From positions 2,507 to 66,506 of the forward strand of contig JAOAKO010000003.1 of the NCBI GenBank assembly GCA_026413625.1: a stretch of 64,000 nucleotides of DNA. The letters are read 5' to 3'. The first letter of the stretch is position 1; each line of letters starts with the position of its first letter. The notes beneath the pieces were generated by a model, which saw only the letters and a list, made by a program, of their open reading frames with translations, was not told the origin of the DNA and searched no databases. Position numbers and translations under genes: made by a program. This document shows, piece by piece, positions 6,746 through 53,656 of the stretch. Origin of the DNA: Candidatus Micrarchaeota archaeon (GTDB lineage: Archaea > Micrarchaeota > Micrarchaeia > CABMEP01).

Positions 6746-6769
6746 ACTCTCACACCTCTTAGTTCATAG

Positions 6770-6802: not shown

Positions 6803-6903
6803 TAGAACAATTAGATAGATATATTATGTGTTAATAATTTATAATCTTTGCTGTTCACGCATTTTGCAGATCAGCTAACTAATACAGCATAAACACTCAA
6901 AGA

Positions 6904-8853: not shown

Positions 8854-8854
8854 T

Positions 8855-9376: not shown

Positions 9377-9506
9377 TCTTTCACCTTAAAGTTATCAGTT
9401 CTTCGCTCCAATTTCCAATTTATAATATATAAATATAAAACATTAAAAAATACGCATATCCTGCCAGCTAAAAGAAGAATTTTAATATTAACGCAATTTA
9501 TAATTT

Positions 9507-9974
9507 ATGGAAAACTATTTAAAATTAGTAATTGCAATCCTGATTCCATTTTGTGCAGGCGCTGTTGGCTCATACTTTACATTCCCAGAAATTGATTCTT
9601 GGTATCAACTTTTAGCAAAGCCGAGCTTTAATCCGCCTAACTGGATATTTGGGCCAGTATGGTCGTTTTTATATCTACTAATCGGAATCTCATTTTACTT
9701 AATATGGAAAGAAAAAGAAATCTCTAAAAATCTCAGCATTTACAAATACTTCTTTATTCAGTTAGTGCTTAATACCTCATGGTCGTTAGTATTTTTCGGC
9801 TTAAAAAACATATTTTTCGCACTCCTATTGATAATCGTTTTATGGTTTTCTATCCTTCTTACAATTCTATCTTTTTATAAAGTTTCTAGGATTTCTGCAT
9901 ACCTGTTAATCCCCTATTTGATTTGGGTAAGTTTTGCCACAATTCTGAATTACTACGTCTATATTTTAAATTAA
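9507..9974 (+). CDS. tspO: TspO/MBR tryptophan-rich sensory protein
   Basis: Five TM helices. WYQLLAKPSFNPPNWIFGPVWSFLYLLIG is the TspO signature. Confidence 0.85.
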   Translation: MENYLKLVIAILIPFCAGAVGSYFTFPEIDSWYQLLAKPSFNPPNWIFGPVWSFLYLLIGISFYLIWKEKEISKNLSIYKYFFIQLVLNTSWSLVFFGLKNIFFALLLIIVLWFSILLTILSFYKVSRISAYLLIPYLIWVSFATILNYYVYILN

Positions 9975-9982
9975 AATTAGAG

Positions 9983-10082
9983 TGCGGCGGCCGGGATTTG
10001 AACCCGGGTTGCAGCCTTTTTGCGCCATTGTATTTATGTCGCATGGCAAGGCCGCGTCCTAACCAGACTAGACTACCGCCGC
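9983..10082 (-). tRNA. tRNA-Gly(GCC) with a 26-nt intron at the canonical 37/38 position
   Basis: The reverse complement folds as GCGGCGG-TA-GTCT-AGTCTGGTTA-GGAC-G-CGGCC-TTGCCA[26 nt]A-GGCTG-CAAC-CCGGG-TTCAAAT-CCCGG-CCGCCGC-A. The intron segment ATGGC can pair with GCCAT of the anticodon loop, which is BHB-like. No CCA is encoded. Confidence 0.8.
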
Positions 10083-10137
10083 AAGTCAACAAGTGTATAA
10101 ATATACATATCAGATTTTAAAAACTTATTGAATTTAT

Positions 10138-11460
10138 TCACAATCCCAACAAAATTGCTATTGCAATGAGCGCAACAGCTGCGACTACGAATAATCCAAT
10201 GAATATCTGAAATTCATTAGGCAAACTTTGTATGTCAGTGTATTTTTCTGCAAGACTTTGTTCGATATAAATTCTTTCAAAAGAGCTCTCCATTACCTCG
10301 TAGTCCGTTATTAACGTGCTCGGAAATATATATTTTATATTTGGATTTAGAGGCGGAAGTTTAAGGTTTATCTCAATTTGATGGATTTTCTTTGGTTCGA
10401 CCATTATTTGCCGTATGCAATTAGAACACTCAACTGAAACTGGAGGTATAAACATCGCGCTTAAAAAAATAGGCGCTTCCACCCGATTTTTTAATTTAAT
10501 TATCACTGGTTGATTCTGATCTAGTTGTGGCTGAGGAGAATAAACAATGTCAATATCTATTGGCTTTTCTTCAGTATAATTGATTATTTGGATTTCTACT
10601 TTCTCATCAAGATTTATCTTACTTGCGTCTTTAGATGTTGCACTTATGGAGTCATGGAGGTGGGATATATCGTTTGAGTACCCCATTCTTACTCTTAGTG
10701 CATTAAGATTCATAAATTGATTATGAGTAGGATCAATTTCAATCCATCCATATCCTTTAACATATGATTCCGTCCATGCATGAGGTATCCATTTGCCATC
10801 TACGTAGACATATCCGATTATCAACCTAGTGGGATAACCTCTATCCCTTGCAATCGCGGCAAATAGGTTAGAGAATTCATCGCATACGCCGGTTCTTTTT
10901 TGAAGAACCCAATCGGACGGCATAGTGCTAGCGGTTATGTCCGTTATCGTCACGTCGCTATAGGAAGAATTGTATTTTATGTTTTTATATATCCAATTCT
11001 GTATTTCATACAAATTATAAGGCTCGGCGGATACAAATAGTCTGCTCAGGTTTTTAATTTCATCATTAATTATAACGTATTTTGTTTCTTTTAAGTTATT
11101 TTCATCATATCGTCCAGTTTCTGCGTTTTTATTTCGATTTATATAATCTGTTTCAACAACAAAATTAGCCGTTATTCTTTTTGATCTGATGCCTCCAAAT
11201 TCAAATCTTATTTTCGATTCTGCATCTGCCACTATGCTATATGGATCAGAAAAATAAGAGCTGATTATTTTTTGATTCTGTGTATCTGTGGGTATGGTGA
11301 CGTCAAGCGTCGCATTTTCAAGCACTCCATTTGAGATGATGTCCCAATGGATTGTAACGTTTAGCAATGCTTTCGTTGGTCTGGCATCTAAAACAGACAC
11401 GAACAGCATTAGAAAAATTGCTATGACTTCTATTTTAAGTGCACTACGACTATAAGTCAT
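10138..11460 (-). CDS. membrane-anchored transglutaminase-like protein
   Basis: N-terminal signal/TM and C-terminal TM (FIGLFVVAAVALIAIAILLGL). The Cys-His-Asp core is GVCDEFSNLFAAIARDRGYPTR ... PHAWTE ... IEIDPT. Confidence 0.8.
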   Translation of the reverse strand: MTYSRSALKIEVIAIFLMLFVSVLDARPTKALLNVTIHWDIISNGVLENATLDVTIPTDTQNQKIISSYFSDPYSIVADAESKIRFEFGGIRSKRITANFVVETDYINRNKNAETGRYDENNLKETKYVIINDEIKNLSRLFVSAEPYNLYEIQNWIYKNIKYNSSYSDVTITDITASTMPSDWVLQKRTGVCDEFSNLFAAIARDRGYPTRLIIGYVYVDGKWIPHAWTESYVKGYGWIEIDPTHNQFMNLNALRVRMGYSNDISHLHDSISATSKDASKINLDEKVEIQIINYTEEKPIDIDIVYSPQPQLDQNQPVIIKLKNRVEAPIFLSAMFIPPVSVECSNCIRQIMVEPKKIHQIEINLKLPPLNPNIKYIFPSTLITDYEVMESSFERIYIEQSLAEKYTDIQSLPNEFQIFIGLFVVAAVALIAIAILLGL

Positions 11461-11503
11461 AATCTACTATGCATCAAAATTAATTAAATTGTTTTTATTT
11501 CAA

Positions 11504-11576
11504 TGCCGCGGGGCGGATTTGAACCACCAACCTTTCGGTCTTCAGCCGAATGCTCTCCCAATTGAGCTACCGCGGC
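11504..11576 (-). tRNA. tRNA-Phe(GAA)
   Basis: The reverse complement folds as GCCGCGG-TA-GCTC-AATTGGGA-GAGC-A-TTCGG-CTGAAGA-CCGAA-AGGTT-GGTGG-TTCAAAT-CCGCC-CCGCGGC-A. This is a clean cloverleaf of 73 nt with no intron. Confidence 0.9.
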
Positions 11577-11628
11577 TTCGGCATGAACGAATACATTATG
11601 TCATTTAATTTTTAAATTGTTTTGTTTT

Positions 11629-12009
11629 TCATATTATGTCAGCTATCCTTCTATTTATTTCTAGCATTTTCTTTTTTGTTATGGAATAAGATCTTTCATT
11701 TTTTTCTAATTCCGGAAGGTATGCAAAGTACCATCCTTCGTAAGGCATTTTCCACGCTATCAGAGTTGTTATACCGGTATTTTCTTCCCATCTGATAAGT
11801 GATTCATACTTTTCATGATCTATCGCAATTCTGTCGCTATTCCAAGCCTTGCACTCCATTGCGTATTGTTTTCCTCTTTTGAACAGAAGTATATCTGGGC
11901 TTACTGCGTTTACCCCGCTTCCTGCAGACCTTACTACGCTATATCCTTGTTCTTCAAATATATGGATAAGCTCCCTTTCGTTTCTGGCACCTTTTTTATA
12001 CCTATACAT
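11629..12009 (-). CDS. hjc: Holliday junction resolvase Hjc
   Basis: KKGARNERELIHIFEEQGYSVVRSAGSG ... SPDILLFKRGKQYAMECK contains the PD-(D/E)XK Hjc motifs. Size is 126 aa. Confidence 0.85.
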   Translation of the reverse strand: MYRYKKGARNERELIHIFEEQGYSVVRSAGSGVNAVSPDILLFKRGKQYAMECKAWNSDRIAIDHEKYESLIRWEENTGITTLIAWKMPYEGWYFAYLPELEKNERSYSITKKKMLEINRRIADII

Positions 12010-12089
12010 CGAATCAGCCTGATTTAAATTGCATATTTATCTTATAAGAGAGATTTATAAATTGTTGTCTTAAATATAATCATTACTTA

Positions 12090-12704
12090 ATGGGTGGAAT
12101 CATGGTTGAAACACAGGGACCGATTAGACGATTTATAAAAATATTGAGGGGCGAGAGACCTTCTATTCCATTAGAAGCAGTTATGCAAAAGGGAGTTGTA
12201 GTATTAGAATCTTCAAAATCTGCACTTGACGCAGCTAAGACAATGGAAAAGAATAAAATAGGCTCAATTATAGTGGTTGAAAAGGGGAAAGCAGTCGGGA
12301 TCGTAACTGAAAGAGACCTGGTTAGACGAGTTATTGCGGCAAAGAAAAAGCCCACAGTTAAGCTCAAACAGATTCTTTCTTCCCCTCTTAGAGTCGCAAG
12401 ACCAGAACAGGATATACAAGAAGCAGTGCTTGCAATGAAGAAATATAAGATAAAGAAGTTGGCAGTTGTCGATGATAAAGGAAGACTTGTGGGCATTGTC
12501 ACAGACACGGACATAACCAGGGCGCTTCCAGGCATGATTGACATTCTTCAAGAGATTGGAAATTATAATAGGCTATCAGAGGAATCGCAATCAGTGGGCA
12601 TCTGCCAAAAATGCGGCCTTTATTCAGACACTCTCCAAAACGTAAACGGAGAGTTTCTTTGCGAGGAATGCAGAGAGGAAGAGTCAGAAGAGTACGAGCA
12701 ATGA
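12090..12704 (+). CDS. CBS-domain pair protein with C-terminal zinc ribbon
   Basis: There are two CBS motifs (IGSIIVVEKGKAVGIVTERDL and KLAVVDDKGRLVGIVTDTDI). The C-terminus has CQKCG...CEECREE. Confidence 0.8.
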   Translation: MGGIMVETQGPIRRFIKILRGERPSIPLEAVMQKGVVVLESSKSALDAAKTMEKNKIGSIIVVEKGKAVGIVTERDLVRRVIAAKKKPTVKLKQILSSPLRVARPEQDIQEAVLAMKKYKIKKLAVVDDKGRLVGIVTDTDITRALPGMIDILQEIGNYNRLSEESQSVGICQKCGLYSDTLQNVNGEFLCEECREEESEEYEQ

Positions 12705-24374: not shown

Positions 24375-24518
24375 CCATATTCCGTCGTTATTTTTTTAAT
24401 TTTATAGGGTCATGTTTATAATCTTTTCTTAACTTATTAATATTAGAGATAATTTCGTATACTGAAGATCGTGTTGAGATCAACACTCTTCTTTTATTTA
24501 TTTCGACCAGGTGTTTAT

Positions 24519-26255
24519 ATGGAACAAAAGGATCAAATATCACAAACTAGCGTAGGGGAAATACCTAAGGTAGGTTCAGAATCAATAAAAACCGCCGATT
24601 TGAAATCAACTAAAATAACGGCAGGTGTGCAAGAAGTACACAGCCAAGAAATATTCTCTGAGTTTCGCGAGCATTCTGTTGCAGAATTCTTTAAGAAAAA
24701 CAGGCAAATGCTTGGCTTTTCAGGAAAAGTTAGATCCCTTACTACTTTAGTACATGAATATGTAACAAACAGCTTAGATGCTTGCGAAGAAGCTAAGATT
24801 TTGCCAAATATTTATGTCAAGATAGACAATCTTCCAAATGGCCACATTCGTCTATATGTCGAAGATAATGGACCAGGAATTCCAAAGCAATTCATTGGAA
24901 GGGCGTTAGGACAGATGCTTGCAGGTACAAAGTTCCACAGGTTTGTACAGCAGAGAGGCCAGCAGGGTATAGGTGCAACCGGAGGAACGATGTACGCGCA
25001 AATAACCACTGGAAAGCCAATACATTGCCGTTCAAGTACTGGAGATAACATTATTTACGAGTGCGATGTTGCAGTTGATTTGAAAACAAATTCTCCAAAA
25101 ATTTCAAATATGGTGGAGTACACTGGAAAATATAGGGGATTAACCATAATCGGCGAATTCGGTGAGGTAAAATACGACAAAAGCGAGTACTCTGCATTTG
25201 AGTATCTTAAGGCTACCGCACTCGCTAACCCCCATGCTCAGATAACTATAGTAGATCCCGAAGGAGAGAGAACAGTGTTTCAGAGAGCACATGAGGAGGT
25301 GCCAGAACGGCCAAAGCCAGCGCAGCCTCATCCTTTAGGCGTTACGACCGATGATCTAATCAATTATGCACATCACTCAAAAGAAAGGAAGCTTTCGTCA
25401 TTTTTAACCTCTAACTTTGCTAGAGTTTCAGATTCAAAGGTTGAAGAATTAAAGAAATTATGTCCTTCTATAAATTTTGACAAGATGCCGAGAGAATTGA
25501 AATGGGAAGAAGCAGAGGCCATAGTTCGCGCATTTAAGCAAATAAAATGGATCGCCCCTTCAGCTGATCCATTGAGGCCTATAGGCAAGGAGCAGATAGA
25601 GAAGGCGTTGAAGAATGTTCTTCAACCCGAATTTGTTTCTGTTTCTGAGAGAAGTCCGAAAGTATTCAGAGGTGGAGTTCCGTTTTTAGTTGAAGTAGGA
25701 ATCGCATACAAGGGTAAAGCAGGCAGGCAGAAGTCAGACGGAACGGTTGGGTTGGATGTTAAGAGATTTGCAAATAGAGCACCGCTCCTTTTTGATGCAG
25801 GAGGCTGTGCCACCATGGAAGCGGTAAAAACCATAGATTGGGGAAGATATGGTTTAAAGGACATAGAAAATATGCCGGTCACTCTTTTCATGAATTTGGT
25901 TTCGGTTCATGTTCCATACACAAGCGCCGGAAAGCAAGCAATATCTAACGAAGAGGAGATAGTTGAGGAATTCAGATATGCGATCATGGAGGTTGCGAGG
26001 GATCTCGACCGATACCTATCAGGTAAAATACGTGATGAGCAGAGAGAAGCAAGAAAGAAGGCGATTATGAGATACGTGAAGCAGATTTCTTCTGACCTTC
26101 CATATCTGGCAGGTGAAAAAACATCGGAAGAGCTAGAGAAAAAACTTTTGCACATCATCGAGTCCAAATATTCAAAGATGTTCGATAAAGGAAGGCTTAC
26201 TGCCGATGAAGAAAAGCAGATAAAGAAAGAGATAGAGGAAGATATTGAAGAATAG
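24519..26255 (+). CDS. top6B: DNA topoisomerase VI subunit B
   Basis: The GHKL/Bergerat fold is marked by HEYVTNSLDA, EDNGPGIP and GQQGIGATG. A transducer domain follows. The ATG at 24519 is preferred over the GTG at 24471. Confidence 0.92.
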   Translation: MEQKDQISQTSVGEIPKVGSESIKTADLKSTKITAGVQEVHSQEIFSEFREHSVAEFFKKNRQMLGFSGKVRSLTTLVHEYVTNSLDACEEAKILPNIYVKIDNLPNGHIRLYVEDNGPGIPKQFIGRALGQMLAGTKFHRFVQQRGQQGIGATGGTMYAQITTGKPIHCRSSTGDNIIYECDVAVDLKTNSPKISNMVEYTGKYRGLTIIGEFGEVKYDKSEYSAFEYLKATALANPHAQITIVDPEGERTVFQRAHEEVPERPKPAQPHPLGVTTDDLINYAHHSKERKLSSFLTSNFARVSDSKVEELKKLCPSINFDKMPRELKWEEAEAIVRAFKQIKWIAPSADPLRPIGKEQIEKALKNVLQPEFVSVSERSPKVFRGGVPFLVEVGIAYKGKAGRQKSDGTVGLDVKRFANRAPLLFDAGGCATMEAVKTIDWGRYGLKDIENMPVTLFMNLVSVHVPYTSAGKQAISNEEEIVEEFRYAIMEVARDLDRYLSGKIRDEQREARKKAIMRYVKQISSDLPYLAGEKTSEELEKKLLHIIESKYSKMFDKGRLTADEEKQIKKEIEEDIEE

Positions 26256-26290
26256 TTTAAACTACATTTAATCGCGATTATGGTGATAAT

Positions 26291-27436
26291 ATGGCAAAAA
26301 AGAAGGAAATTTCTCTTGAAAAATCAGATGCATCGCTTACAAAAGAAGACATAATTGTGAAGGAGAAATTAACATCATTGGGAAAACAGCTTATCAAGGA
26401 AATTGAGGCGGGTCAATCTCCTTACTTCGAGACAGTTGTGAGGGGAAGATCAAATGTTTTGCACGGCGAAGAAGGGTATCTGTACCTTGGCGATAAAAAG
26501 GAAAAAAGAGTTTTTCTAAACGTTGCGCAGGCAAAGAAATTCATGCAAACAGTTGCGGTCGCAGCAAAATGCAAAAAATTCAAAGAAGAAAATCTCCATA
26601 CTTCCATAAGAGGTCTTTTCTATCAGCTTAAGTTCACTTTGGGAGAAGATTTGGACGAGGAATTGTTTGAAGAGCAATCAGAATCTAACGAGCTCGTTGA
26701 AGATTTAGAGGTTGCTTTAAATCTGAAGAGAGAGGATCTTAATTTAAGCACTGACCGAAAAGGAGTCGTAGCTGGAAACCTTGTAATAAGAGACAAATTC
26801 GGAGGGGAGGAAACTGAGATCGACTGCACTAAGCAAGGTCGTTCTGGTTGGATGATTCCTTCAGATGTAGATAACGGAATGGAGTTTATAGATGTTGATG
26901 TCGATTACGTGTTGGTAATTGAGAAGGATGCACTTTGGCAAAGACTTAACGAAGACAAGTTCTGGAAAAAAGAGAACTGCTTAATAATAACTCCAAAGGG
27001 TCAGGCTTCAAGAGGATGCAGAAGGCTTATAAGAAAACTTGCCGATATGAAACTTCCGATTTATTGTTTTATGGATTGCGATGCATGGGGATGGTACATC
27101 TATTGGACAATCAAAACCGGAAGTATGAATCTTGCTTATTTAGGCAGAAATATCGCAACACCAGAAGCAAAGTTTATAGGCGTTACGATGTCTGATATTG
27201 AGAGATACGACTTTTTAAAGAAACTTACAATAAACGCAAAAGAGGTCGATCTTAAAAGGGCAGAGGAATTGCTTTCCTACCCTTGGATAAGCAGGCACCA
27301 AGATTGGGTTAAGGAATTAAAGATAGTTTTAGACACTAAGAAAAAGATAGAGCAAGACGCTTTGCAAGGGCCGCGTCTTACATTCGTAGGAGAGTATGTG
27401 CGAGAAAAGGTTGAAAATAAGCAATTCCTATATTGA
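26291..27436 (+). CDS. top6A: DNA topoisomerase VI subunit A (Spo11 homolog)
   Basis: The 5Y-CAP region has IRGLFYQL, containing the catalytic Tyr. The Toprim domain is VLVIEKDALWQRL ... FMDCDAWGWYI. Confidence 0.92.
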   Translation: MAKKKEISLEKSDASLTKEDIIVKEKLTSLGKQLIKEIEAGQSPYFETVVRGRSNVLHGEEGYLYLGDKKEKRVFLNVAQAKKFMQTVAVAAKCKKFKEENLHTSIRGLFYQLKFTLGEDLDEELFEEQSESNELVEDLEVALNLKREDLNLSTDRKGVVAGNLVIRDKFGGEETEIDCTKQGRSGWMIPSDVDNGMEFIDVDVDYVLVIEKDALWQRLNEDKFWKKENCLIITPKGQASRGCRRLIRKLADMKLPIYCFMDCDAWGWYIYWTIKTGSMNLAYLGRNIATPEAKFIGVTMSDIERYDFLKKLTINAKEVDLKRAEELLSYPWISRHQDWVKELKIVLDTKKKIEQDALQGPRLTFVGEYVREKVENKQFLY

Positions 27437-39810: not shown

Positions 39811-40611
39811 TTAATAACTATATATTTCGCTCCAGATCATCCTTGCTACTATTTTAATAAGACTTGTTTCATTTTTTATTTTTTCTATGTCCTCTAATAA
39901 TTTTCTCTTTATTTCATCTCTTTTTGATGGGTTTCTTTCAGCTTTCTTTGTTGCGGATTCTATTTTTCGTTTAATGATGCTTTTCTTAATCGATTCCATA
40001 TCACTTACATCTATAAGATTTTTTTGCTTTTTTTCTTCAATATATCGAATAGTTTCTTCTTTTAATTTCCCGTTTCTAGCTGCAAATAACGGAATTAGCT
40101 TTCGCCATCCATTTGCAGATAAATCTACATTAAGGAGACCAATCTGATAACATTTTTCGCTTTCAAAGTTGACATTGATCAATCCAATCATTACTGCATT
40201 CTTCGCGCTAATTACAAAGTTAATAAGCGACAAAGCTCCTGTTGTGGAACGTTCTCCCGCTATACCGATGTAATTAAATCGCGTACCGCAGATAAAACCT
40301 TTTTCAGAAATACCAACAAAGTTAATTTTACCTGTTGTAAGAGATCTCGCTTTTCCTATTATATTAACCAATCCTAATTCACATGGGCCCCCGTTATTAA
40401 ATACATTTATAGCTCCTAATGAAATATATCTATTCATTTCAGAGCTTCTATCTAAGTTCAGAATTCCAACCCTAAACTTACTTTCGTTGCCGCACTTACC
40501 TTCTATTTTCGTTTCAGTAGTCCACCCAATCAGATTCTTCGGATTCTCTGTATATTTAATAAATATATTATCTTCACATTTATTTTTTCCAATATTCATA
40601 TAATTATCCAT
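39811..40611 (-). CDS. hypothetical protein with degenerate G-[ILV]-[ILV]-N repeats and Lys-rich helical tail
   Basis: Eight spaced motifs are present: VGILNL, LGAINV, LGLVNI, INFVGI, FNYIGI, LSLINF, IGLINV, IGLLNV. The C-terminal ~90 aa are charged and helical. Confidence 0.6.
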   Translation of the reverse strand: MDNYMNIGKNKCEDNIFIKYTENPKNLIGWTTETKIEGKCGNESKFRVGILNLDRSSEMNRYISLGAINVFNNGGPCELGLVNIIGKARSLTTGKINFVGISEKGFICGTRFNYIGIAGERSTTGALSLINFVISAKNAVMIGLINVNFESEKCYQIGLLNVDLSANGWRKLIPLFAARNGKLKEETIRYIEEKKQKNLIDVSDMESIKKSIIKRKIESATKKAERNPSKRDEIKRKLLEDIEKIKNETSLIKIVARMIWSEIYSY

Positions 40612-40832
40612 AACATCCCCTTAACAATATTAGTACAAAAGATATATATAAATTTTTGCTTTCATTGGCTTTGTAGAAATCGTCTAGCATAAATCAGGAT
40701 TTCTTTTCTCTGGCCGATTAAATGACCGGCTTAATATTTTCTCTATCACTATAAATAGGCTCATCTCTTTATTTTTAAAGACAGAGTGAATAAGCCTCAT
40801 GTTTTTAAATTTTAATTTTGCATTATTAACTT

Positions 40833-41945
40833 ATGGAAAAGAAACCCCAGCTAGGTAAGGAATCAAACATCGAAAATATACTAATAGTTGCTGCACTCAC
40901 ATCAGCCAAAAAAGAAGAAGAGAGAGGTTTAGATGACCCATCAAAACTGAGATATGCATCAACGATAGAAATAAGTAAAAGAACAGAAGAGTTGTTATTC
41001 AAAAATATTGGCAATAGACCAACCGGATATGAGCTGTTAAAACACTTAAAAGAGCAAGATCTAACCATCTTCTTACTTCACGAGGCGAGTATACTGGAAA
41101 ACATACTAATAAAACAACAACCGGGAATGCCGACCGTAATCAAATTCTACTTTGATCCGAAAATAAAGTTCTTTTCCCTTACTCCGGATGCCGAGAAAGT
41201 TATAGAACTAATTCTTAGAATTGAAAATACGAAAAGACAGAATTTCAAGTATACATTTATTGTAAGCACAAACGACATCAATGCGCTGATTAGCGAAATT
41301 CAAAAATATATAAAAGATCAGGTTAAATTTATTCAGACTGGCAAGAACCAATATAGTATAACAATCTTAAGGGGAAACCCGGAAATAAACGAAATAAGCG
41401 AAAGAGCGAAATTAATCGCTAAGATGTGTATTATCAACATAGCTATAAACAAAAAAAAATTTGTAAACCTTTTGGCGAAACAATGGGATATGCCGTATAA
41501 TAAATTCGAGAGCAGGAGGGCAATTGAAGATCATTTTTCAACATTGAAATGGAATATTTGGAATAAAGTAGAAAATCAACTTCCACCAAAAATCAGGGAG
41601 GCCATAATTAAAAAAAGACAGGAGCTTTTACCAAAGGAAAGGCTAGAACAAATAAAAATCGAGCAAAAAATTCAAAAAAGGTACAAATCATTAGACGAAA
41701 TCGTAGTTCTGGTCAAGGAAAATATAAAGCAAACTGATAAAAAAAACATAAAATCTGAGCTCAAACTACTTCTCAAAGAAATCAAAAAAGTCATAAAATT
41801 GAACGAAGACGATGAAGCTAAAGCAAGAAAAGAAATTGAAATGTATATTGCCAAAAATTTGGATGAAAACTGGTATAATCAATTCCAAGAAATCATAAAA
41901 TTAAGGTCATTTCTTCATTCAAAATATCCAAAGGCTTTTGATTGA
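40833..41945 (+). CDS. hypothetical protein (orphan, Lys-rich, 370 aa)
   Basis: Clean long ORF with no recognised motif. The C-terminal third is a highly charged helical region. Confidence 0.6.
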   Translation: MEKKPQLGKESNIENILIVAALTSAKKEEERGLDDPSKLRYASTIEISKRTEELLFKNIGNRPTGYELLKHLKEQDLTIFLLHEASILENILIKQQPGMPTVIKFYFDPKIKFFSLTPDAEKVIELILRIENTKRQNFKYTFIVSTNDINALISEIQKYIKDQVKFIQTGKNQYSITILRGNPEINEISERAKLIAKMCIINIAINKKKFVNLLAKQWDMPYNKFESRRAIEDHFSTLKWNIWNKVENQLPPKIREAIIKKRQELLPKERLEQIKIEQKIQKRYKSLDEIVVLVKENIKQTDKKNIKSELKLLLKEIKKVIKLNEDDEAKARKEIEMYIAKNLDENWYNQFQEIIKLRSFLHSKYPKAFD

Positions 41946-43939: not shown

Positions 43940-44128
43940 ATGCAATGCACAATCAACGGAAAGAAAGATTATTTTACTTTCAGCGGCCAGGTTAAAGAGC
44001 TGCTTCAAAAGTTAGGCATAAACGAGCAAATCGTCATAGTTAAGGTAAATGGAAAAATAGTTACGGAATTGGATAAAGTAAACGACAGCGATATTGTTGA
44101 AATACAGAAGGTCATACTTGGCGGTTAG
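43940..44128 (+). CDS. ThiS/MoaD/TtuB-like ubiquitin-fold sulfur carrier ending in Gly-Gly
   Basis: 62 aa ending ...IQKVILGG-stop. It lies directly upstream of the TtuA/NcsA-type thiolase. Confidence 0.7.
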   Translation: MQCTINGKKDYFTFSGQVKELLQKLGINEQIVIVKVNGKIVTELDKVNDSDIVEIQKVILGG

Positions 44129-44138
44129 GGATGGTAAA

Positions 44139-45080
44139 ATGGTCAAATGCTCATTGTGCAATAAGTCAGCGGTAATTCATCTTTCATATGCAAACTCAAG
44201 CCTTTGCGAAAAGCATCTCATCCATTCTGTAGAGCGAAGAGTAAAGCGAACAATCAGAGAATACAAGATGCTTGATGGAGCGAAGCATATAGGGGTTGCC
44301 ATTTCAGGAGGAAAAGACAGCCAAGTCTTGCTCTACATTTTGCACAAAATAGCCAAACCAATGAGAATAAAGGTTACAGCGATTCTTGTAGACGAGGGAA
44401 TAGAGGGGTATAGGGACAAGATAATTCCAGAAGCAAAAAAGCTCACTTCAGACCTTGGAGTTCCCTTGGAAATAGTCTCATTCAAGGAGCTGACCAACTA
44501 TTCGCTGGACGAAATAATGAAGATGCAAAAAAACCAGCGAGGGGAATCATCGTGCACTTTTTGCGGTGTTTTCAGAAGGTATGCCATAAATAAAGTTGCG
44601 AAGATGCTCAAAGTTGACAGACTTGCCATAGGGCACAATCTGGATGACATGGTTCAGAGCTACATGATGAACATCCTAAGGAATGAGGATTTGTTATTCA
44701 GATTTAAGCCGATCGGCGGTGCGATAGAAGATGAACGATTTGTCATGAGAATACGTCCTCTTTTTAGGATCCCTGAAAAGGAAATAGCGGTTTATGCAGT
44801 TTTGAAGGGATTCAAATCTGTTTTCGTTGAATGCCCTTACGTGAACGAAGGTCTTAGGCCGATGGTCAGAGATTTTGTAAATTCATTAGAGTCAAAATAC
44901 CCCGGAACAAAATTTAAGATTCTTCAAAATTATTTAGAGGTAAGCAAGAAAATTTCAGACCAATTTTATAGTTCAGAGGAAGGAAAAAAAATAAACTCAT
45001 GCTCGATTTGCGGAGAGCCAACCTCTTCTTCAGTATGCAAGACATGTTCCTTACTAAGTAAATTGCTGAGAAAAGAATAG
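44139..45080 (+). CDS. ttuA: tRNA 2-thiolation protein (TtuA/NcsA family PP-loop ATPase)
   Basis: The N-terminal zinc finger is CSLCNK..CEKH and the PP-loop is AISGGKDS. The Fe-S ligand region is CTFCGVFRR and the C-terminal zinc finger is CSICGEP..CKTC. The ATG at 44139 follows the upstream stop. Confidence 0.85.
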   Translation: MVKCSLCNKSAVIHLSYANSSLCEKHLIHSVERRVKRTIREYKMLDGAKHIGVAISGGKDSQVLLYILHKIAKPMRIKVTAILVDEGIEGYRDKIIPEAKKLTSDLGVPLEIVSFKELTNYSLDEIMKMQKNQRGESSCTFCGVFRRYAINKVAKMLKVDRLAIGHNLDDMVQSYMMNILRNEDLLFRFKPIGGAIEDERFVMRIRPLFRIPEKEIAVYAVLKGFKSVFVECPYVNEGLRPMVRDFVNSLESKYPGTKFKILQNYLEVSKKISDQFYSSEEGKKINSCSICGEPTSSSVCKTCSLLSKLLRKE

Positions 45081-45096: not shown

Positions 45097-45840
45097 TCAT
45101 AAATTCCATATTATTTTTGTAACCTGTGTAAGCTCCTCAACCATAAAGTCTGCTTTTGGCCCCTTCACTTCTTCTGTATTGCATTTTCTATTCAAATGAA
45201 CTGTTATCATTCCGGCATCCTTTGAAGGTTCGATATCGTTAGAATAGCTGTCTCCAACCATCATTATCTCCTTAACGTCTTTATTTAGCTTTGATGCAAT
45301 CCACAGGAAATACTCTTTTGTCTTAATCTCAATGCTATGCTGCATTTTGTTTTCGTTCACATACTGTTCGGTCACAAATATTTCGTCTATCAGCCTGTTA
45401 AGATTTGCCCAGTTTATTTTGTCTATCTGTTTATGTGTCATCCCAGCAGTTGCAATTCCTATTGTTATTCCGTTGCTTTTCAGAGCAGTAAGCGTCTCTA
45501 TAACTTCGTTATACAGATATGCGAAGTATGCATATTTTGTTTTGTGGTGTGCGCTTATACCTGCGGTTGCTATTCTATCAATTTTTAGCTGGTCGTTTAT
45601 TCCAAGATTCCTGCAAACAATTAGGGCGGTTTCGTCAATAAGCTTTCCGTAGTTGGATCCCTTTTCTTTTCTTATCTTATCCATGGTCTCTTCTAAAACC
45701 TTTCTTGATAGTTTTATTCTGAATTTTTCAGTTGCTTCAGACTGCATTCCAATTATTACTGCCCGCTTTGAAAGCTCTTTGAATTCGTTTGTATTTACAA
45801 GAGTATTGTCCCAATCAAACAAAACAGTTGAAATTTTCAT
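45097..45840 (-). CDS. HAD-superfamily hydrolase
   Basis: Motif I is VLFDWDNTLV, followed by a cap domain and MVGDSYSNDI. The ATG at 45840 is preferred to the one at 45882. Confidence 0.75.
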   Translation of the reverse strand: MKISTVLFDWDNTLVNTNEFKELSKRAVIIGMQSEATEKFRIKLSRKVLEETMDKIRKEKGSNYGKLIDETALIVCRNLGINDQLKIDRIATAGISAHHKTKYAYFAYLYNEVIETLTALKSNGITIGIATAGMTHKQIDKINWANLNRLIDEIFVTEQYVNENKMQHSIEIKTKEYFLWIASKLNKDVKEIMMVGDSYSNDIEPSKDAGMITVHLNRKCNTEEVKGPKADFMVEELTQVTKIIWNL

Positions 45841-45900
45841 AAAATAGTCAAACAAGACAGGTATAAATACATTTCGCCACAAATATTTTTAGGGATTTAA

Positions 45901-46575
45901 ATGGGAGATAGCAGGAAGATAAAAGCAATAATCTTCGACATGGACAATACGCTTTTAGAACTGAATGTAGACTGGTATGGGTTGACAAGAGATATAGACT
46001 ACGAATATTTTCAAGGTAAATATTCGCATCTGACACCACATAAATTCTTTGTAGCTTTCTTCTCTAAACTGCTTGACAAGCTGACAAAAAGGCAGCAGAA
46101 AGAAATAAGGGAAAAGAGACTTGAAAAAGAAATGGAAGGATTGGCAACAGGAACATGCTTTCCATACAGAGGAATTCTCAAATCGTTAAGCAAAAAATAC
46201 AAGTTAGCAGTTGTGTCCGGAAATTATCGTCCTACTGTCATCAAAGCTTTGAAGAGATGCGGATTTAGGCCATATATTAATGCAATAGTCAGCATAGACG
46301 ATGTTCCGGAATCAAAACCTTCTCCACTTCCATTGCTTAGGGCATTGAAGATGCTGAAAGTAAAACCAAGTCAAGCAGTATATATAGGCGACCACCCGGA
46401 TGACATCAAGGCAGCGAGAAACGCAGGAATGTACGCAATAGGCGTCTTGACATATAAAAGAAAATATGATCAGCTTAATAAGGAGTCGCCAGACATAATA
46501 ATCAACAACTTATTTGAACTGGAAAGCGCAATAAATAAATTAGAATTCAGATTGCAAAATAAATACGTGAGATAA
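45901..46575 (+). CDS. HAD-superfamily phosphatase (PGP/beta-PGM-like)
   Basis: IIFDMDNTLL, VVSGN and YIGDHPDDIKAARNAG are present. Confidence 0.8.
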   Translation: MGDSRKIKAIIFDMDNTLLELNVDWYGLTRDIDYEYFQGKYSHLTPHKFFVAFFSKLLDKLTKRQQKEIREKRLEKEMEGLATGTCFPYRGILKSLSKKYKLAVVSGNYRPTVIKALKRCGFRPYINAIVSIDDVPESKPSPLPLLRALKMLKVKPSQAVYIGDHPDDIKAARNAGMYAIGVLTYKRKYDQLNKESPDIIINNLFELESAINKLEFRLQNKYVR

Positions 46576-46628: not shown

Positions 46629-47849
46629 TTGTTAAACGTTCCAAAAAGAAGAAAAACATTTCAAGTTAGGGTTGGAGAAATTTACATCGGAAGCGAGCAT
46701 CCGATCGTAGTTCAGTCAATGACAAATACAAACACCGCAGATGTGGATGCAACAGTAAAGCAGATCATTGAATTGCACAATGCAGGCTCAGAAATAGTTA
46801 GATTCACTGTAAAGGACGAAGAAATGGCAAAGGCAGTTCCAGACATAAAGAAAAAACTTCTTGAACATGGTTGCAGCGTTCCATTGGTTGGAGATTTTCA
46901 TTTTAACGGAGACATTCTTCTTTCAAAATATCCTAAGATGGCAGATTCGCTTGACAAATGGAGGATCAATCCAGGAAATGCAGGAAGCGATGAAAGATTT
47001 AGAAATGTGATCAAGCTTGCAATAGACTATGGCAAGCCAGTAAGAATAGGAGTGAACGGAGGTTCTCTCGACCAAAAGCTTCTCGCTAGGATGATAGAAA
47101 AGGATTTAAAGAGGCCAAAGGAAAAACAACTTGGCGCGCATAGAGTTTTCCTTGATGCAATGGTAAAGAGCGCATTGACATCTGCGGAATCTGCAGTCGA
47201 TGTCGGAATGCCTGAAAACGCAATAATTCTTTCTGCGAAAGTTTCCAATGTCAGAGATCTGATTTATGTATACTCAACCCTTGCAAAGAAGTGCAAATTC
47301 CCTCTTCACTTGGGGCTTACAGAAGCAGGAGGGGGGTCAAAGGGAATTGTGGCATCTGCACAAGGGATAGGAATTTTGCTTAATCAGGGAATAGGTGACA
47401 CTATACGTGTATCCATTACTCCAAGGCCAGGTCAAAGCAGAACAGAGGAGGTTAGAGTTGCACAGGAGATACTTCAGACATTAGGGCTTCGTGCATTCTT
47501 TCCGATGGTTACAAGCTGTCCAGGATGCGGAAGAACAACAAGCACTGTTTTCCAAACCATCGCAGAGGAAATAAGCAAATATCTACAAGAGATGAGCCCG
47601 GTTTGGCGGGCACAAGGATACAAGGGATTTGAAAGCATGAAGGTTGCAGTAATGGGTTGCATTGTCAACGGTCCAGGAGAATCAAGAGAAGCAAACATAG
47701 GACTCAGCCTACCTGGCTCCGGAGAAACCCCTTCAGCTCCGGTTTTCGCAGACGGAAAGCAGATCGCAACCCTTACAGGGGACGCAAAGAAGATTTCAGA
47801 AGAGTATAAAAAACTGATTGAAGAATACGTGAAAAGCCACTATAAGTAA
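46629..47849 (+). CDS. ispG: 4-hydroxy-3-methylbut-2-enyl diphosphate synthase IspG (GcpE)
   Basis: [37 protein letters not shown] and INPGN are present. The Fe-S ligands are SCPGCGRT and GCIVNGPGE. The start is a TTG, with no in-frame ATG near the 5' end. Confidence 0.9.
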
Positions 47850-47960
47850 GGATAAAACGCAAAAACCTAGATTTATAAATATATATCAATTTATTAGTAA
47901 GCATTGAAATAAGTTTACATTATATTTATTTTGTAGATTGTATTATTTTGAGGTTGTATT

Positions 47961-50798
47961 ATGAAGAATTCGCTTGGAATTGTTTTAGTTCTTATTTTGT
48001 TTGGGCTGCTGAGTGCAGCTTCTATAGAATTAATAACTCCTTTAAATAACTCGTTTACTAATCAGTCTTCAATAAGCTTTACATTCAACGCAACATTTGA
48101 TGAAAATCCATCATTTACATGCATGCTTTACATTAATGGAATACCAATCTCACAAAATAATTCAGTTGAAAATAGCACTATAACAGTATTTACACAGCCT
48201 TTGAACACTAGCTTTTATCAGTGGTATATCAATTGTACAAACGGTACAGACATAATAATTTCAGAAATCAGAACTTTAACAATAGATCTATATGGTATCA
48301 ACGCCTCAGTGCCATTTCTAGCAGAACCAGACTCGTTCATTTCCAGCAATCCTGCAAACAATAAATTAACTTTGCTGATAAATGCATCAGACATTGGTCC
48401 AGCAGGAATAGACTATTTGACTGCTAACTTCACTGCATTGAATCAACCAGGAATCACACTTGTTAATATGACATACAATAACACAACAGGTTTATGGAAT
48501 GCAACAATTACAATTACAGATGTAAGCATGTTTAATTTTGCACCTTTAAACGTTACAATATTCGGCCAGGACAAGGCAGGAAACGGAATATTGTATTGGA
48601 CCCCTTACACTACAGTAATACTATACAATATGTCAGTTCCTGGAGTTGATTCGGAATGTTATGATTGGGGTCCTGAAATGACTGATTTGACTGCAATTTC
48701 AAACTTTAATTCAGTTAATTTTACGATAGATATGCAGATTAATGTATCATGCATTAAAAACCAGACATTTTTACCACCTTATCCCTCATGGCTTAATGAG
48801 ATGACCACAGTTGCTATTCTTAATTTTACAAACCTAAATCTTTCAAATCCAGCCATAGGCTCAAAGTTAGCCATGTTATCAAATAATATTAAAGTTAATA
48901 TAACACTTCCAAACCAATTTGGCGATTCGAGAATATTTGTAAACAGTACAGCATTGGCGGAATTCGATACAAACGCAACAATAAAATTGTTCCATCTTCC
49001 GTTCCTTTCAAAACCAGAGATAATTTCAGATGCTGGCGCGGACGGTTTGGATGAAGGATTTACTGTTTTATGGGCGCAAGGAAATAAAGAGGGAAATCTT
49101 ACATTTAGGGTTAAAGGGTTTTCTGGATACAATATAACAGACAATGTAGCACCCATAATAACAATTAACACACCGTTAAACAGTTCCTATGTAAACAGCA
49201 CAACCCCGACAATCAACATAACCCTTAATGGAACCAAGACAGCAATAAGCTATTTGCTTGTTCAAATCGATAACACAAGTTATATATTCAATTCAACCGT
49301 GAATCAAACAAACTGTCAGGCAACAGCAGATCCAGAGATTATGAATTGCGTATTCCAAAGTGCAAGCTTATCACAAGGAGGGCATACAATATTCGTTCTT
49401 GCGCGTGATTTCGGCGGTGTAAGCGGAAATTCAGCTAATAAATCAGCAGTATTTACAGTTGATTCCATAGCCCCTGTTTTAAATATTTCAACCCCGCAAA
49501 ACAACACAATTCTTAATTCAGTCACACTTAAAATAACAGGTGCATCAAATGACGCTAATCTAAATTACACAAACATTTCAGTTTACAATAATACTGGGAA
49601 TTTGGTTAATTCAACTACAACAACAAATACATCTTGGGTAGTATATTTATATGTGCCAAATAATATGAAATATAATATATCAATAAATGCATTCGACAAG
49701 GCAGGAAATAACGCATCATATATTTTAGGAAATATTACAGTTAACGACACCACAGCACCAAAAATAACTGCAATAAGTGCAACCACCTCAGGTTCAACTG
49801 TCACATTGAGCGTGACAACAGATGAATTTGCAGTATGCAGGTATGCAACAACAAATGTCGGTTATGAACAAATGCTGAGCATGGATACGACTGGACAGCT
49901 TGTCCATACAAAATCAATAACCTTCAACTCTTCAACTTCCGGAACGTTTTACGTGGCATGTGCAGATCCAGTAGGGAATGAAATGGTTAATTCAAACACC
50001 ACTACATTCAGTGTTACCGTTTCATCAGGTTCATCTGGGGGAGGTTCAACAACTACTGTTACAACTCTGCCTCCAGTAGTACAGCCACCAACACAGCCAC
50101 CAGCGCAACCACCAGCTGAAGAGATACCGGCAGTCACTAAACCAATAAGCATTGTTTCATCAACTGCTTCAACAGCAACCTTCAATTTGAATACTGTTGC
50201 TGGAGAACCACTGATCATAGATGTTGCAAAATTGGCGGAAGGAGTGGCACAGGCGACTGGAATATCTAAGATTTCCATTACAACATCATCCGCGGTTTCA
50301 AATGTGCAGTTTTCAATAAAACCAGTTGAAAAACCAGCATCCATTCAAGAGCCGGCAAAGAAGGTCCTTAATTATATAGAAATCAATTTCGGAACCTCAA
50401 GCCAGGCTGTTCAAAGCGCAAAGATAACATTTACATTAAAGAAATCAGATATATCAAAGCAGAATGTAGATGCAGATACTATTAAGCTATTGAGATATGC
50501 GAACGGACAATGGCAGGAGCTTCAAACTGAGAAGGGATTCGAGGACATTGAATCCATAACATTCGAAGCAACGACTCCAGGATTCAGCTACTTTGCAATT
50601 GCAGGTGAAGAAATCAAAGCTCCAGCGGAGGCTCCAAAGATAACGACTACAAAAGCTGGCGAAGAAAAAGAATCAGGTTTAATCCAAATTCCTGAGCAAA
50701 AGAAGGAGAGTCCGTTAGGACTAATCCTTTTGATAGCAGTAATCCTTATAATAGGATACATTGTTCTCAGCAGCCAGAAGCCATGGAAGACAAAGTAA
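47961..50798 (+). CDS. large N-glycosylation-sequon-rich surface (S-layer-like) protein with C-terminal TM anchor
   Basis: It has a signal peptide and repeated Ig-like modules that begin xAPxIxI..P.N.S. By eye I count at least ~25 N-x-S/T sequons in the first ~350 aa. A Pro/Thr linker PPVVQPPTQPPAQPP follows. A segment ending TTPGFSYFAIAG resembles the PGF-pre-PGF domain. The C-terminal TM is LGLILLIAVILIIGYIVL. Confidence 0.8.
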   Translation: MKNSLGIVLVLILFGLLSAASIELITPLNNSFTNQSSISFTFNATFDENPSFTCMLYINGIPISQNNSVENSTITVFTQPLNTSFYQWYINCTNGTDIIISEIRTLTIDLYGINASVPFLAEPDSFISSNPANNKLTLLINASDIGPAGIDYLTANFTALNQPGITLVNMTYNNTTGLWNATITITDVSMFNFAPLNVTIFGQDKAGNGILYWTPYTTVILYNMSVPGVDSECYDWGPEMTDLTAISNFNSVNFTIDMQINVSCIKNQTFLPPYPSWLNEMTTVAILNFTNLNLSNPAIGSKLAMLSNNIKVNITLPNQFGDSRIFVNSTALAEFDTNATIKLFHLPFLSKPEIISDAGADGLDEGFTVLWAQGNKEGNLTFRVKGFSGYNITDNVAPIITINTPLNSSYVNSTTPTINITLNGTKTAISYLLVQIDNTSYIFNSTVNQTNCQATADPEIMNCVFQSASLSQGGHTIFVLARDFGGVSGNSANKSAVFTVDSIAPVLNISTPQNNTILNSVTLKITGASNDANLNYTNISVYNNTGNLVNSTTTTNTSWVVYLYVPNNMKYNISINAFDKAGNNASYILGNITVNDTTAPKITAISATTSGSTVTLSVTTDEFAVCRYATTNVGYEQMLSMDTTGQLVHTKSITFNSSTSGTFYVACADPVGNEMVNSNTTTFSVTVSSGSSGGGSTTTVTTLPPVVQPPTQPPAQPPAEEIPAVTKPISIVSSTASTATFNLNTVAGEPLIIDVAKLAEGVAQATGISKISITTSSAVSNVQFSIKPVEKPASIQEPAKKVLNYIEINFGTSSQAVQSAKITFTLKKSDISKQNVDADTIKLLRYANGQWQELQTEKGFEDIESITFEATTPGFSYFAIAGEEIKAPAEAPKITTTKAGEEKESGLIQIPEQKKESPLGLILLIAVILIIGYIVLSSQKPWKTK

Positions 50799-50818
50799 AA
50801 TAGTAATTGCTGGAAATA

Positions 50819-50846
50819 AAGGGCGCATGCGCCCTTAGTTTTTTAT
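50819..50846 (+). terminator. GC-rich hairpin followed by T-run (intrinsic-terminator-like)
   Basis: AAGGGCGCATGCGCCCTT is a perfect palindrome. AGTTTTTT follows it, 21 nt after the surface-protein stop. Confidence 0.5.
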
Positions 50847-50943
50847 CTTTATCTTTTCCTTTTCTTTTATTCTTCATCCTTTGTTCATATTTATATTTCT
50901 TTTCCTCTTAACTGTATTAAACGTTTAACTTAATGGTGGGAGC

Positions 50944-51816
50944 ATGGAGATACTTATTGCTGAACCCAAGGGTTTTTGTTTTGGCGTAAAAAGATCAATA
51001 GATATGGTTGAAAAGGCGCTTAAAGAAGGAAAGAAAAATATTCAAATATTTGGGCCGATTGTCCATAACCCTCAGCAGATAAAGCTTCTTGAGGAAAAAG
51101 GAGTAAAAATGGTTAATTCAATTGATGAGATTCAGCCCGGAACTGTATTCGTAAGGGCGCACGGCGTATCCCCAGAAGTCTTTAGGAAGCTTAAAGAGAA
51201 GGGAGTGGTAGATATAATAGACGCAACGTGCCCATTTGTAAAGGTTGAGCAAGAATATGCAAAGAAGCTTGCAGAAGAAGGCTACCAGGTAATAATCATT
51301 GGAGAGAAAAACCATCCAGAAGCGTTAGGAGCACAGGGATATGCACCAGGTTCAATAATAATCGGAAGTGTGGAGGAAGCAAGGGCACTGAAAGAAGTCC
51401 CTAAAATCGGCGCGGTAGTTCAGACAACTCTAGAGCCAGAGGCAGTTGATGATATAGTGGCGGAACTTTATCACAAGGCAAAGGAGGTAAGGGTGTTCAA
51501 TACAATCTGCCAATCAACAAAAATGAGGCAGCCTGCAGCGAAGAAAGTAGCAGAGCAGGTTGATCTTATGATAGTTGTAGGGGGCAAGAACAGCGGAAAT
51601 ACGAGAAGGCTTGCAGAGGTGTGCAGCAGAATAAAGCCAACATATCATATAGAAACAGCTGCAGAACTAAAGAAAGAGTGGTTTGAAGGAATGAAAAAGG
51701 TAGGGATAAGCGCAGGGGCTTCAACACCTGAATTCATAATAGACGAAGTAATAGAGGCCATTAAGAAAATGGATGGGAGCTCAAAGAAAACAAGCAAAAA
51801 GAAAAGTGAAAAATAA
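50944..51816 (+). CDS. ispH: 4-hydroxy-3-methylbut-2-enyl diphosphate reductase IspH (LytB)
   Basis: PKGFCFGVKRSIDMVEKAL, GPIVHNPQ, DATCPFV, NTICQSTKMRQ and VVGGKNSGNTRRL are present. All three Cys ligands are there. Confidence 0.9.
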   Translation: MEILIAEPKGFCFGVKRSIDMVEKALKEGKKNIQIFGPIVHNPQQIKLLEEKGVKMVNSIDEIQPGTVFVRAHGVSPEVFRKLKEKGVVDIIDATCPFVKVEQEYAKKLAEEGYQVIIIGEKNHPEALGAQGYAPGSIIIGSVEEARALKEVPKIGAVVQTTLEPEAVDDIVAELYHKAKEVRVFNTICQSTKMRQPAAKKVAEQVDLMIVVGGKNSGNTRRLAEVCSRIKPTYHIETAAELKKEWFEGMKKVGISAGASTPEFIIDEVIEAIKKMDGSSKKTSKKKSEK

Positions 51817-52699: not shown

Positions 52700-53656
52700 T
52701 TAATCTTTAATTCCCTCTGGGGTTACCTTAAAGACGCATTCTCCTTCCGGCATGTTTGGAGAATCAATCAGTCTCGCTATTCTTTTCTCTTCTTTTCCTC
52801 TTCTTACATAAACACGATAAGTGCTTTGATGCGCAAGCACGTGACCTCCAATTGGAGTTGTTGGGTCGCCGAATAAAATCGCAGGATTGTCCATTACCTG
52901 GTTCGTAATATATACGGCTACATTGTAGGTATCAGCAAGCCTTTGAAGCGCACGTATGTGCCTATTTAATTTCTGCTGTCTTTCCCCAAGTGCCCCCCTA
53001 CCAACATAATCCGATCTAAATTGAGAAGTTAGTGAATCTACAATTATCAGTTTTATATTTTCCTTTTTTATTATCTCATCAGCCTTTTCAATCAATAAAA
53101 TCTGGTGGTCTGAGTTCATAGCTCTTGCAACATGAATATTCTTCAGAACCTGGTCTGGATCCATACCTTGGGCCTCTGCGATTTGTCTTATTCTTTCCGG
53201 CCTGAACGTTGCCTCGGAATCAATGAACAAAACCTTTCCTCCTAGGCCTCCTTGTCCCTCAGGCTTTTGAACGTTAACTGCAAGCTGGAATCCCACTTGA
53301 GTTTTTCCTGAACCGAATTTTCCGAAGAACTCAGTTATTGCCTGTGTTTCTACCCCTCCGCCAAGCAATTCATCAAGCTCTTTTGATCCGGTGCTAATCT
53401 TTGCTATTTGTTTTCTTCTTTCGTAAACCTGATCCCCAGTTTCAAAACCTATTTCAGTTGATTTCTTTGCCGCCTCAATTGCTTTTTTTGCATTGTCAAC
53501 GCTTATATCGCCTATTTCTGCAAGTTCATGGGGTGATGCAGTAGCAATCTTTTCAATAGTATCATATCCCTCGCTTCTAAGCTTTTCAGCGGTAGCAGGG
53601 CCGATGCCAGGAAGATCCTCAAGCTCTCTTACGTACTCTGTTTTTTCTTTTGCCAT
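52700..53656 (-). CDS. radA: DNA repair and recombination protein RadA
   Basis: The N-terminal HhH is [15 protein letters not shown]. Walker A is GKFGSGKTQ and Walker B is LIIVDS. Confidence 0.93.

Follow-up and report, generated by a model that had tools for sequence, protein, structure and literature searches.

The genes ispG and ispH, which lie close together in a 64,000-nucleotide stretch of contig JAOAKO010000003.1 from a Candidatus Micrarchaeota archaeon (the whole stretch analysed, hereafter the window), encode bacterial-type versions of the two enzymes that complete the 2-C-methyl-D-erythritol 4-phosphate (MEP) pathway of isoprenoid precursor synthesis. On the evidence of gene content, catalytic residues that are all intact, synteny, occurrence among relatives and codon usage resembling that of the genome, the two proteins very probably carry out the final steps of a full bacterial MEP pathway, gained by horizontal transfer and domesticated long ago, in a tiny hot-spring archaeon of the Zaosheniarchaeales (Micrarchaeota, DPANN). 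A complete bacterial MEP pathway, most of whose genes were acquired horizontally, has been described for the Norongarragalinales, Zaosheniarchaeales and Micrarchaeales (PMC12892359; Natl Sci Rev 2025, nwaf542).

The window is located on contig C10 of a 483,789-bp assembly of 16 contigs, estimated to be 54% complete with 0.15% contamination. We refer to this genome as G000, to its congeners as G001-G003, G005 and G006, and to members of other genera in the same family as G007 and G008.

Catalytic residues and genomic setting of IspG and IspH

The two genes are arranged on the same strand:

46629-47849, plus strand: ispG (gcpE), (E)-4-hydroxy-3-methylbut-2-enyl-diphosphate synthase, long form, 406 aa, TTG start
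50944-51816, plus strand: ispH (lytB), 4-hydroxy-3-methylbut-2-enyl diphosphate reductase, 290 aa

The initial annotation, which was made from the letters of the window, had placed both frames and the one between them (47961-50798) at exactly these coordinates and had described IspG and IspH as bacterial-type enzymes with complete catalytic signatures. Both proteins passed the equivalog cut-offs and kept all iron-sulfur (Fe-S) ligands and catalytic residues, in agreement with that description. IspG scored 449.8 bits against NF001540 (cut-off 345), 391 against TIGR00612 (cut-off 280) and 388.7 against Pfam GcpE (PF04551), and it aligned over its full length with the Thermus thermophilus enzyme (PDB 4s38/2y0f), likewise of 406 aa, at 524 bits. 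Its predicted [4Fe-4S] ligands C297, C300, C344 and E351 aligned with T. thermophilus C297, C300, C343 and E350, while R58, R112, R139, N143, K204, E232 and R260 of the TIM barrel, which bind 2-C-methyl-D-erythritol 2,4-cyclodiphosphate (MEcPP), corresponded to T. thermophilus R56, R110, R141, N145, K204, E232 and R260. The cluster ligands and substrate residues were invariant in an alignment with nine homologues, and the motifs quoted at the outset for IspG, GCIVNGPGE included, were all present in the translation. Identity of window IspG to the enzymes of proteobacteria, acidobacteria and Thermus was 55-60%, compared with ~90% for congener IspG encoded at the same syntenic position.

IspH scored 302.4 bits against TIGR00216 (cut-off 188), 291.7 against NF002187 (cut-off 276) and 323 against Pfam LYTB (PF02401), and its alignments with the Aquifex aeolicus (PDB 3dnf) and Escherichia coli enzymes reached 268 and 159 bits, respectively. 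Cluster cysteines C12, C96 and C189 matched E. coli C12, C96 and C197, and H41, H73, H124, E126, T161, T162, S217, N219 and S260 matched E. coli H41, H74, H124, E126, T167, T168, S225, N227 and S269. The sole residue difference from the E. coli set, glycine in place of S226, is common to Aquifex IspH. The motifs GFCFGV, DATCPFV, NTICQST and GGKNSGNT could all be read in the translation, as had been reported, bringing the quoted motifs recovered in the two proteins to eight. For both enzymes the alignments were computed, and the reference residues are numbered as in the structure papers.

Both genes are embedded in archaeal DNA. RadA, topoisomerase VI (Topo VI) subunits B and A, RtcB, aIF2-gamma, Orc1/Cdc6, an eRF1-family protein and FtsZ are all encoded in the window, and the archaeal context that had been claimed from RadA, Topo VI and aIF2-gamma was thus confirmed on the window's own contig. 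The initial annotation had proposed a codon-usage comparison with the ribosomal genes; we compared ispG and ispH with 374 open reading frames (ORFs) and found them indistinguishable from the genome, with no signal of recent transfer: their third-position GC content lay at the 36th and 45th percentiles, and their synonymous-codon fit at the 71st and 89th. In addition, the ispG/ispH gene order is common to at least five independent metagenome-assembled genomes (MAGs). Because codon usage is native and synteny is conserved across independent MAGs, both contamination and recent transfer are excluded.

The lineage was identified through a congener. G001, which belongs to the same genus as the window's genome, corresponds to contig JAVZRC010000001 of MAG DRTY-7_201803_bins_59, and Dataset S1 of PMC12892359 lists this MAG under o__CABMEP01; f__CABMEP01; g__DTQF01, Zaosheniarchaeales, from a Yunnan hot spring. 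With a congener listed there, proteins ~90% identical and gene order kept, the window's genome belongs to the Zaosheniarchaeales (o__CABMEP01).

The remaining MEP genes and the missing dxr

Within the 64-kb window we found no other MEP gene, which bears out the initial observation that it holds no dxs, dxr or ispDEF. Whole-genome profile searches across contigs, scored against curated cut-offs, placed the genome's dxs, ispDF and ispE matches on contigs C1, C11 and C14, and also recovered two downstream genes:

Contig C1: dxs, 711 bits (cut-off 466)
Contig C11: ispD + ispF fusion in one 423-aa open frame; ispD 188.8 bits and ispF 117.3 bits, both over cut-off
Contig C14: ispE, 161.4 bits (cut-off 139)
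Contig C11: type-2 isopentenyl diphosphate isomerase (IDI-2), 346 bits
Contig C15: polyprenyl synthase, 207 bits

The assembly therefore encodes six of the seven MEP activities, dxr alone being missing, and the genome-wide search proposed at the outset for MEP and mevalonate genes returned every MEP gene but dxr and no mevalonate genes. Because six of seven activities are encoded in the genome, the suggestion that only the last two steps are present is wrong.

Two adjacent ORFs of 307 and 320 aa (G000:C15:3083-4521, minus strand) matched the Dxs model weakly, one its N-terminal half (31 bits) and the other its C-terminal half (65 bits). This pair is probably a split archaeal transketolase rather than a second dxs.

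The proposed route would begin with Dxs, which would convert pyruvate and glyceraldehyde-3-phosphate to 1-deoxy-D-xylulose 5-phosphate, followed by Dxr (absent from this assembly), which would yield MEP; the IspD-IspF fusion and IspE would carry MEP on to MEcPP. IspG, through its [4Fe-4S] cluster, would reduce MEcPP to (E)-4-hydroxy-3-methylbut-2-enyl diphosphate (HMBPP), from which IspH would produce isopentenyl diphosphate (IPP) and dimethylallyl diphosphate (DMAPP). IDI-2 would balance these two products, and the prenyl synthase together with geranylgeranylglyceryl phosphate synthase (GGGPS) would pass them into archaeal ether-lipid synthesis. Electrons would be delivered from a 2-oxoacid:ferredoxin oxidoreductase via a small ferredoxin to IspG and IspH. 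That the two enzymes are active, that such a ferredoxin donates the electrons and that the products reach the lipids is inferred from sequence.

Several points weigh against this reading. TIGR00243 found no dxr candidate in the 54%-complete assembly, so that for this one organism a complete pathway is deduced from its congeners; GGGPS, ferredoxin and flavodoxin were likewise not found in this assembly; and a step based on isopentenyl-phosphate kinase (IPK) has been suggested for the Zaosheniarchaeales (PMC12892359). We examined the dxr gap by comparison with relatives, whose genomes measure 0.7-1.1 Mb within the family compared with 0.48 Mb here. Full-length Dxr (~500 bits) was present in 5/6 congeners and, with this genome excluded, in 7/8 family members. 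Neither tblastn with the five neighbours of dxr from G001 nor tblastx with the 20 kb around dxr of G001 and G005 yielded a match in this assembly. In G005, dxs and dxr share contig C3 (82 kb), with dxr at 40,028-41,224, and the dxs-dxr spacing on one congener contig is 30 kb. The region ~5,000-12,150 of G005:C3 matched contig C1 of G000, dxs included, at 92% identity, and this match ended at base 2-3 of C1, which is the end of that contig. Beyond that point tblastx matched nothing in G000 along ~60 kb of G005:C3, the stretch that holds dxr, although the same procedure, run on the ispG region as a positive control, retrieved 90% of it. With a block of ~60 kb absent as a whole, starting at a contig end, the missing dxr has the appearance of an assembly gap rather than of a deletion.

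In congeners, dxr (G001:C4:36325-40521) adjoins genes that, by reading of their sequences, are rubrerythrin-like and desulfoferrodoxin-like (superoxide reductase). These neighbours suggest an oxygen-sensitive lifestyle, which would fit the Fe-S enzymes IspG and IspH.

These results bear on how the two late enzymes are best explained. A genuine loss of dxr, leaving either a broken pathway or one in which an unrecognised non-homologous reductoisomerase has taken over, would agree with the empty TIGR00243 search and with congener G003, which is 81% complete and also lacks a match; however, dxr is missing along with ~60 kb of its neighbours from a contig end onward, the signature of an assembly gap, and the other six activities are intact, so we consider such a loss very improbable. 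We give even less credence to a truncated pathway, in which the cell would retain the late steps only and take up MEcPP or HMBPP supplied by a host or a neighbour. This account draws on the absence of other MEP genes from the window and of dxr from the assembly, and on the host dependence thought to characterise the lineage (PMC12892359), but it is contradicted by dxs, ispDF and ispE matches over cut-off on other contigs and by the presence of dxr in 5/6 congeners, its expected position here falling past a contig end.

Assembly error or mis-binning could in principle have joined bacterial genes to archaeal DNA, and the bacterial type of the enzymes, with the identity levels to bacterial IspG given above, would speak for it. 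Against this, a single contig holds both genes along with RadA, Topo VI, aIF2-gamma and Orc1/Cdc6; the gene order recurs in independent MAGs, codon usage is native and estimated contamination is low; and the nearest relatives, among the matches listed, are Micrarchaeota and DPANN archaea rather than bacteria. Contamination, which the initial annotation had already judged unlikely on the strength of the shared contig, therefore has next to no probability. IspG and IspH might also be Fe-S reductases moonlighting on another substrate; nothing specific speaks for this, although IspH-family proteins show side activities in vitro. Since all MEcPP- and HMBPP-binding residues are conserved, and the genome also encodes enzymes for making the substrate upstream as well as IDI-2 and a prenyl synthase downstream, we consider this idea equally negligible. 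Among the three explanations offered from the window, the one that proved correct is the horizontal gain of an entire pathway whose other genes lie elsewhere in the genome, while the truncated pathway and the moonlighting role found no support.

Distribution, phylogeny and gene neighbourhood

IspG was detected in 31/301 sampled genomes of the phylum, with a patchy distribution: families f1 and f14 carried it throughout (5/5 and 2/2), f5 and f10 in part (15/74 and 5/54), and most families had none. We built an IspG tree of 95 sequences with a careful IQ-TREE search, in which bacteria were represented by the 77 closest IspGs among the matches listed from species-representative genomes, plus Thermus from the PDB; these bacterial sequences came mostly from Pseudomonadota, Acidobacteriota and Gemmatimonadota, with a few other phyla represented singly. 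Window IspG fell in a clade of its own family, comprising genera g1 and g3 (support 100/98), and no bacterium sampled among the matches listed fell inside it. Long-form archaeal IspGs formed one weakly supported group (ultrafast bootstrap [UFBoot] 63) made up of the window clade, a large f5/f10 Micrarchaeota clade, a Woesearchaeota clade and a Diapherotrites/"archaeon" clade. Short-form IspGs from f8, f14, f23 and one f5 genus formed a separate clade on a long branch (100/100), and IspG of G007 occupied a very long branch. By these placements, Micrarchaeota hold at least three unrelated IspG types, namely the long form, the short form and the G007 type.

An IspH tree of 64 sequences, obtained by a quick search, likewise grouped window IspH with its own family, as sister (Shimodaira-Hasegawa approximate likelihood-ratio test [SH-aLRT] 99) to a clade holding a Norongarragalinales-labelled sequence. 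Adjoining IspH clades contained Thermodesulfobacteriota/Geobacter, Aquificae and others, and IspH of G007 was unrelated. For both proteins, the nearest relatives among the matches listed were other Micrarchaeota and DPANN archaea, not bacteria, and the 77 closest bacterial IspGs among those matches formed no specific sister group to the window clade that would mark a donor. The phylogenies that the initial annotation had called for thus returned archaeal clades of the window's own family, but neither a donor nor, for IspG among the bacteria sampled, a specific bacterial sister. Taken together, the trees support an old acquisition and several independent IspG types in Micrarchaeota, and IspG has possibly spread from DPANN to DPANN.

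Two further observations concern relatives of these enzymes. In G007, IspG (in a frame of 502-533 aa) and IspH were only 46% and 36% identical to the window proteins, and their genes are divergently arranged and adjoin dxr (G007:C1:80000-95000); this points to a separate MEP acquisition, or to a replacement, inside one family. IspH-NUDIX fusions (PF00293 + PF14815) were present in proteins P0142 (425 aa) and P0168 (410 aa), which derive from metagenomes and from a MAG of the Micrarchaeota and fell into two separate clades of the IspH tree near Norongarragalinales/Norongarragalina-labelled sequences. A NUDIX domain on IspH could hydrolyse the products IPP and DMAPP to monophosphates.

The surroundings of ispG and ispH comprise the following features:

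44094-45080, plus strand: TtuA-like tRNA thiolase (Pfam)
45097-45882, minus strand: haloacid dehalogenase (HAD)-family hydrolase (Pfam)
45901-46575, plus strand: HAD-family hydrolase (Pfam)
47961-50798, plus strand: surface protein, 945 aa; TIGR04213 PGF-pre-PGF, 86.1 bits; signal peptide and C-terminal transmembrane anchor
52700-53656, minus strand: radA, Pfam Rad51, 312 bits; 97% identical in congeners, where it also adjoins ispH
24471-27436: Topo VI B and A
4520-5710: aIF2-gamma

In genus g1 the order TtuA-HAD-HAD-ispG-surface protein-ispH-radA was conserved, with flanking proteins ~90% identical, and the TtuA-HAD-HAD-IspG order was kept in G005, G002 and G008. The 945-aa protein between IspG and IspH contains many N-x-S/T (N-glycosylation) sequons, which together with its PGF-pre-PGF domain fit the surface protein that had been proposed for this gene. 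In congeners G005, G002 and G006 a surface-protein gene also separates ispG from ispH, but at 57-67% identity compared with ~90% for flanking genes; divergence this fast is what one would expect of an envelope protein exposed on the surface of a cell that lives with a host. In the sister genus represented by G008, ispG and ispH are direct convergent neighbours without a surface-protein gene. Because the gene is absent there while the neighbourhood is the same, it is a genus-specific insertion and not a functional or pathway partner of the two enzymes.

Elsewhere in the window, a 649-aa protein (6904-8853, minus strand) showed the complete bacterial long RelA/SpoT homologue (RSH) layout of HD_4 (148 bits), RelA_SpoT (131 bits), TGS and ACT. 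These domains mark it as a (p)ppGpp synthetase/hydrolase of the RelA/SpoT type, here encoded by a member of the Micrarchaeota. Long RSH proteins are unusual among archaea.

Precursor supply, electron supply and known systems

We asked whether the family has a mevalonate route in addition to the MEP pathway. While IspG was found in 9/9 family genomes, HMG-CoA reductase had no match in this genome and was found in 0/9 family genomes, and mevalonate kinase exceeded its cut-off in 0/9, the only signal in this genome being a 20-bit cross-match on IspE. GGGPS was present in 8/9, the window's assembly being the only one from which it is missing. Because no mevalonate route was seen, the MEP pathway is probably the lineage's sole source of IPP.

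A genuine IPK (250 bits) was found in the family only in its divergent member G007. Matches of 31-38 bits in the other genomes were rejected as IPK, being the archaeal UMP kinase PyrH (TIGR02076, 210 bits); in the window's genus the only AA-kinase-family match to the IPK model, the ORF at 1495-2226 (minus strand) of G005:C4:59912-63208, scored 210 bits against TIGR02076 and 46 bits against the IPK model. On these scores, the IPK-based step suggested in PMC12892359 is not supported for genus DTQF01. A more far-reaching proposal, which we offer tentatively and consider rather doubtful, is that the MEP pathway fully replaced the mevalonate route in DTQF01 and that the long-form IspGs of Micrarchaeota, Woesearchaeota and Iainarchaeota go back to one ancient acquisition followed by spread among DPANN phyla, instead of each order having received its own bacterial transfer. 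If the replacement in DTQF01 were true, archaeal ether lipids would be built there solely from bacterial-route precursors.

Both IspG and IspH depend on an electron donor of low potential. No flavodoxin was found in the assembled part of the genome, and motif scans of it for ferredoxin gave five short, evidently spurious ORFs and no plausible candidate. In 5/6 congeners we found a ~620-aa IorA-type subunit (POR_N, TPP and dicluster Fer4) and an IorB/POR-gamma subunit, with a 77-aa single-cluster ferredoxin (Fer4_15, 61 bits) encoded directly downstream of the IorA/IorB genes in 5/6 congeners. In G001:C7:25619-28753, a locus unassembled in the window's genome, the IorA-type, IorB-type and 77-aa ferredoxin genes are followed by a 134-aa ORF without a Pfam match. 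IspG and IspH would most likely draw their electrons from this 77-aa ferredoxin, itself reduced by a 2-oxoacid:ferredoxin oxidoreductase.

Reports of MEP genes in DPANN archaea go back to Castelle & Banfield 2018 (as cited in later papers) and Hoshino & Gaucher 2018 (PMC6107057). In Castelle et al. 2021 (PMC8204110), 52 Woesearchaeota genomes with the MEP pathway formed a monophyletic clade, and Huang et al. 2021 (PMC8421398) described ispD/F fusions in Woesearchaeota subgroup J. A bacterial MEP pathway has thus been known in DPANN archaea since 2018 and in the order Zaosheniarchaeales since 2025. A bacterial precursor pathway that feeds archaeal-type lipids is an instance of horizontal gene transfer blurring the "lipid divide" between the prokaryotic domains, and its presence in tiny symbiotic archaea indicates that selected biosynthetic independence has been retained. 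To this picture the present analysis makes small additions: a contig end would account for the missing dxr; neither a mevalonate route nor a true IPK is apparent in DTQF01; the gene for the surface protein was inserted in this genus only; Micrarchaeota hold at least three unrelated IspG types; and an IorAB-ferredoxin system is a candidate electron supply.

Compared with the characterised bacterial enzymes, T. thermophilus IspG (PDB 2y0f, 4s38) and A. aeolicus IspH (PDB 3dnf), the window proteins match over their full length with identical ligands and catalytic residues, but the host is an archaeon, and neither bacterium is a specific sister in the trees. The Woesearchaeota are likewise DPANN archaea with a bacterial MEP pathway that includes an ispD-ispF fusion, and their long-form IspGs share the one weakly supported group with those of the window clade. 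They belong to a different phylum, however, and their MEP genes are often co-located, whereas those of the window's genome are scattered over at least four contigs; they are also reported to lack both GGGPS and digeranylgeranylglyceryl phosphate synthase (DGGGPS) (PMC8421398), in contrast with the presence of GGGPS in most genomes of the window's family.

The closest counterpart is the Micrarchaeota pathway of PMC12892359, which shares with the window's genome its lineage, the pathway itself and the inferred horizontal origin, with GGGPS and DGGGPS in both. The patchy occurrence of IspG, concentrated in a few families of the phylum, fits that account. The two differ in that the window's genus lacks a genuine IPK, its matches being PyrH, whereas an IPK-based step has been suggested for the order, and in that the window's MAG is more fragmentary, without dxr in its assembly. 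The initial annotation had held that the finding would become routine, though still notable, if a full MEP pathway were encoded in the genome and already known from the lineage, and this very probably applies here (PMC12892359): IspG and IspH of the window are members of an already known, published trait of their own order.

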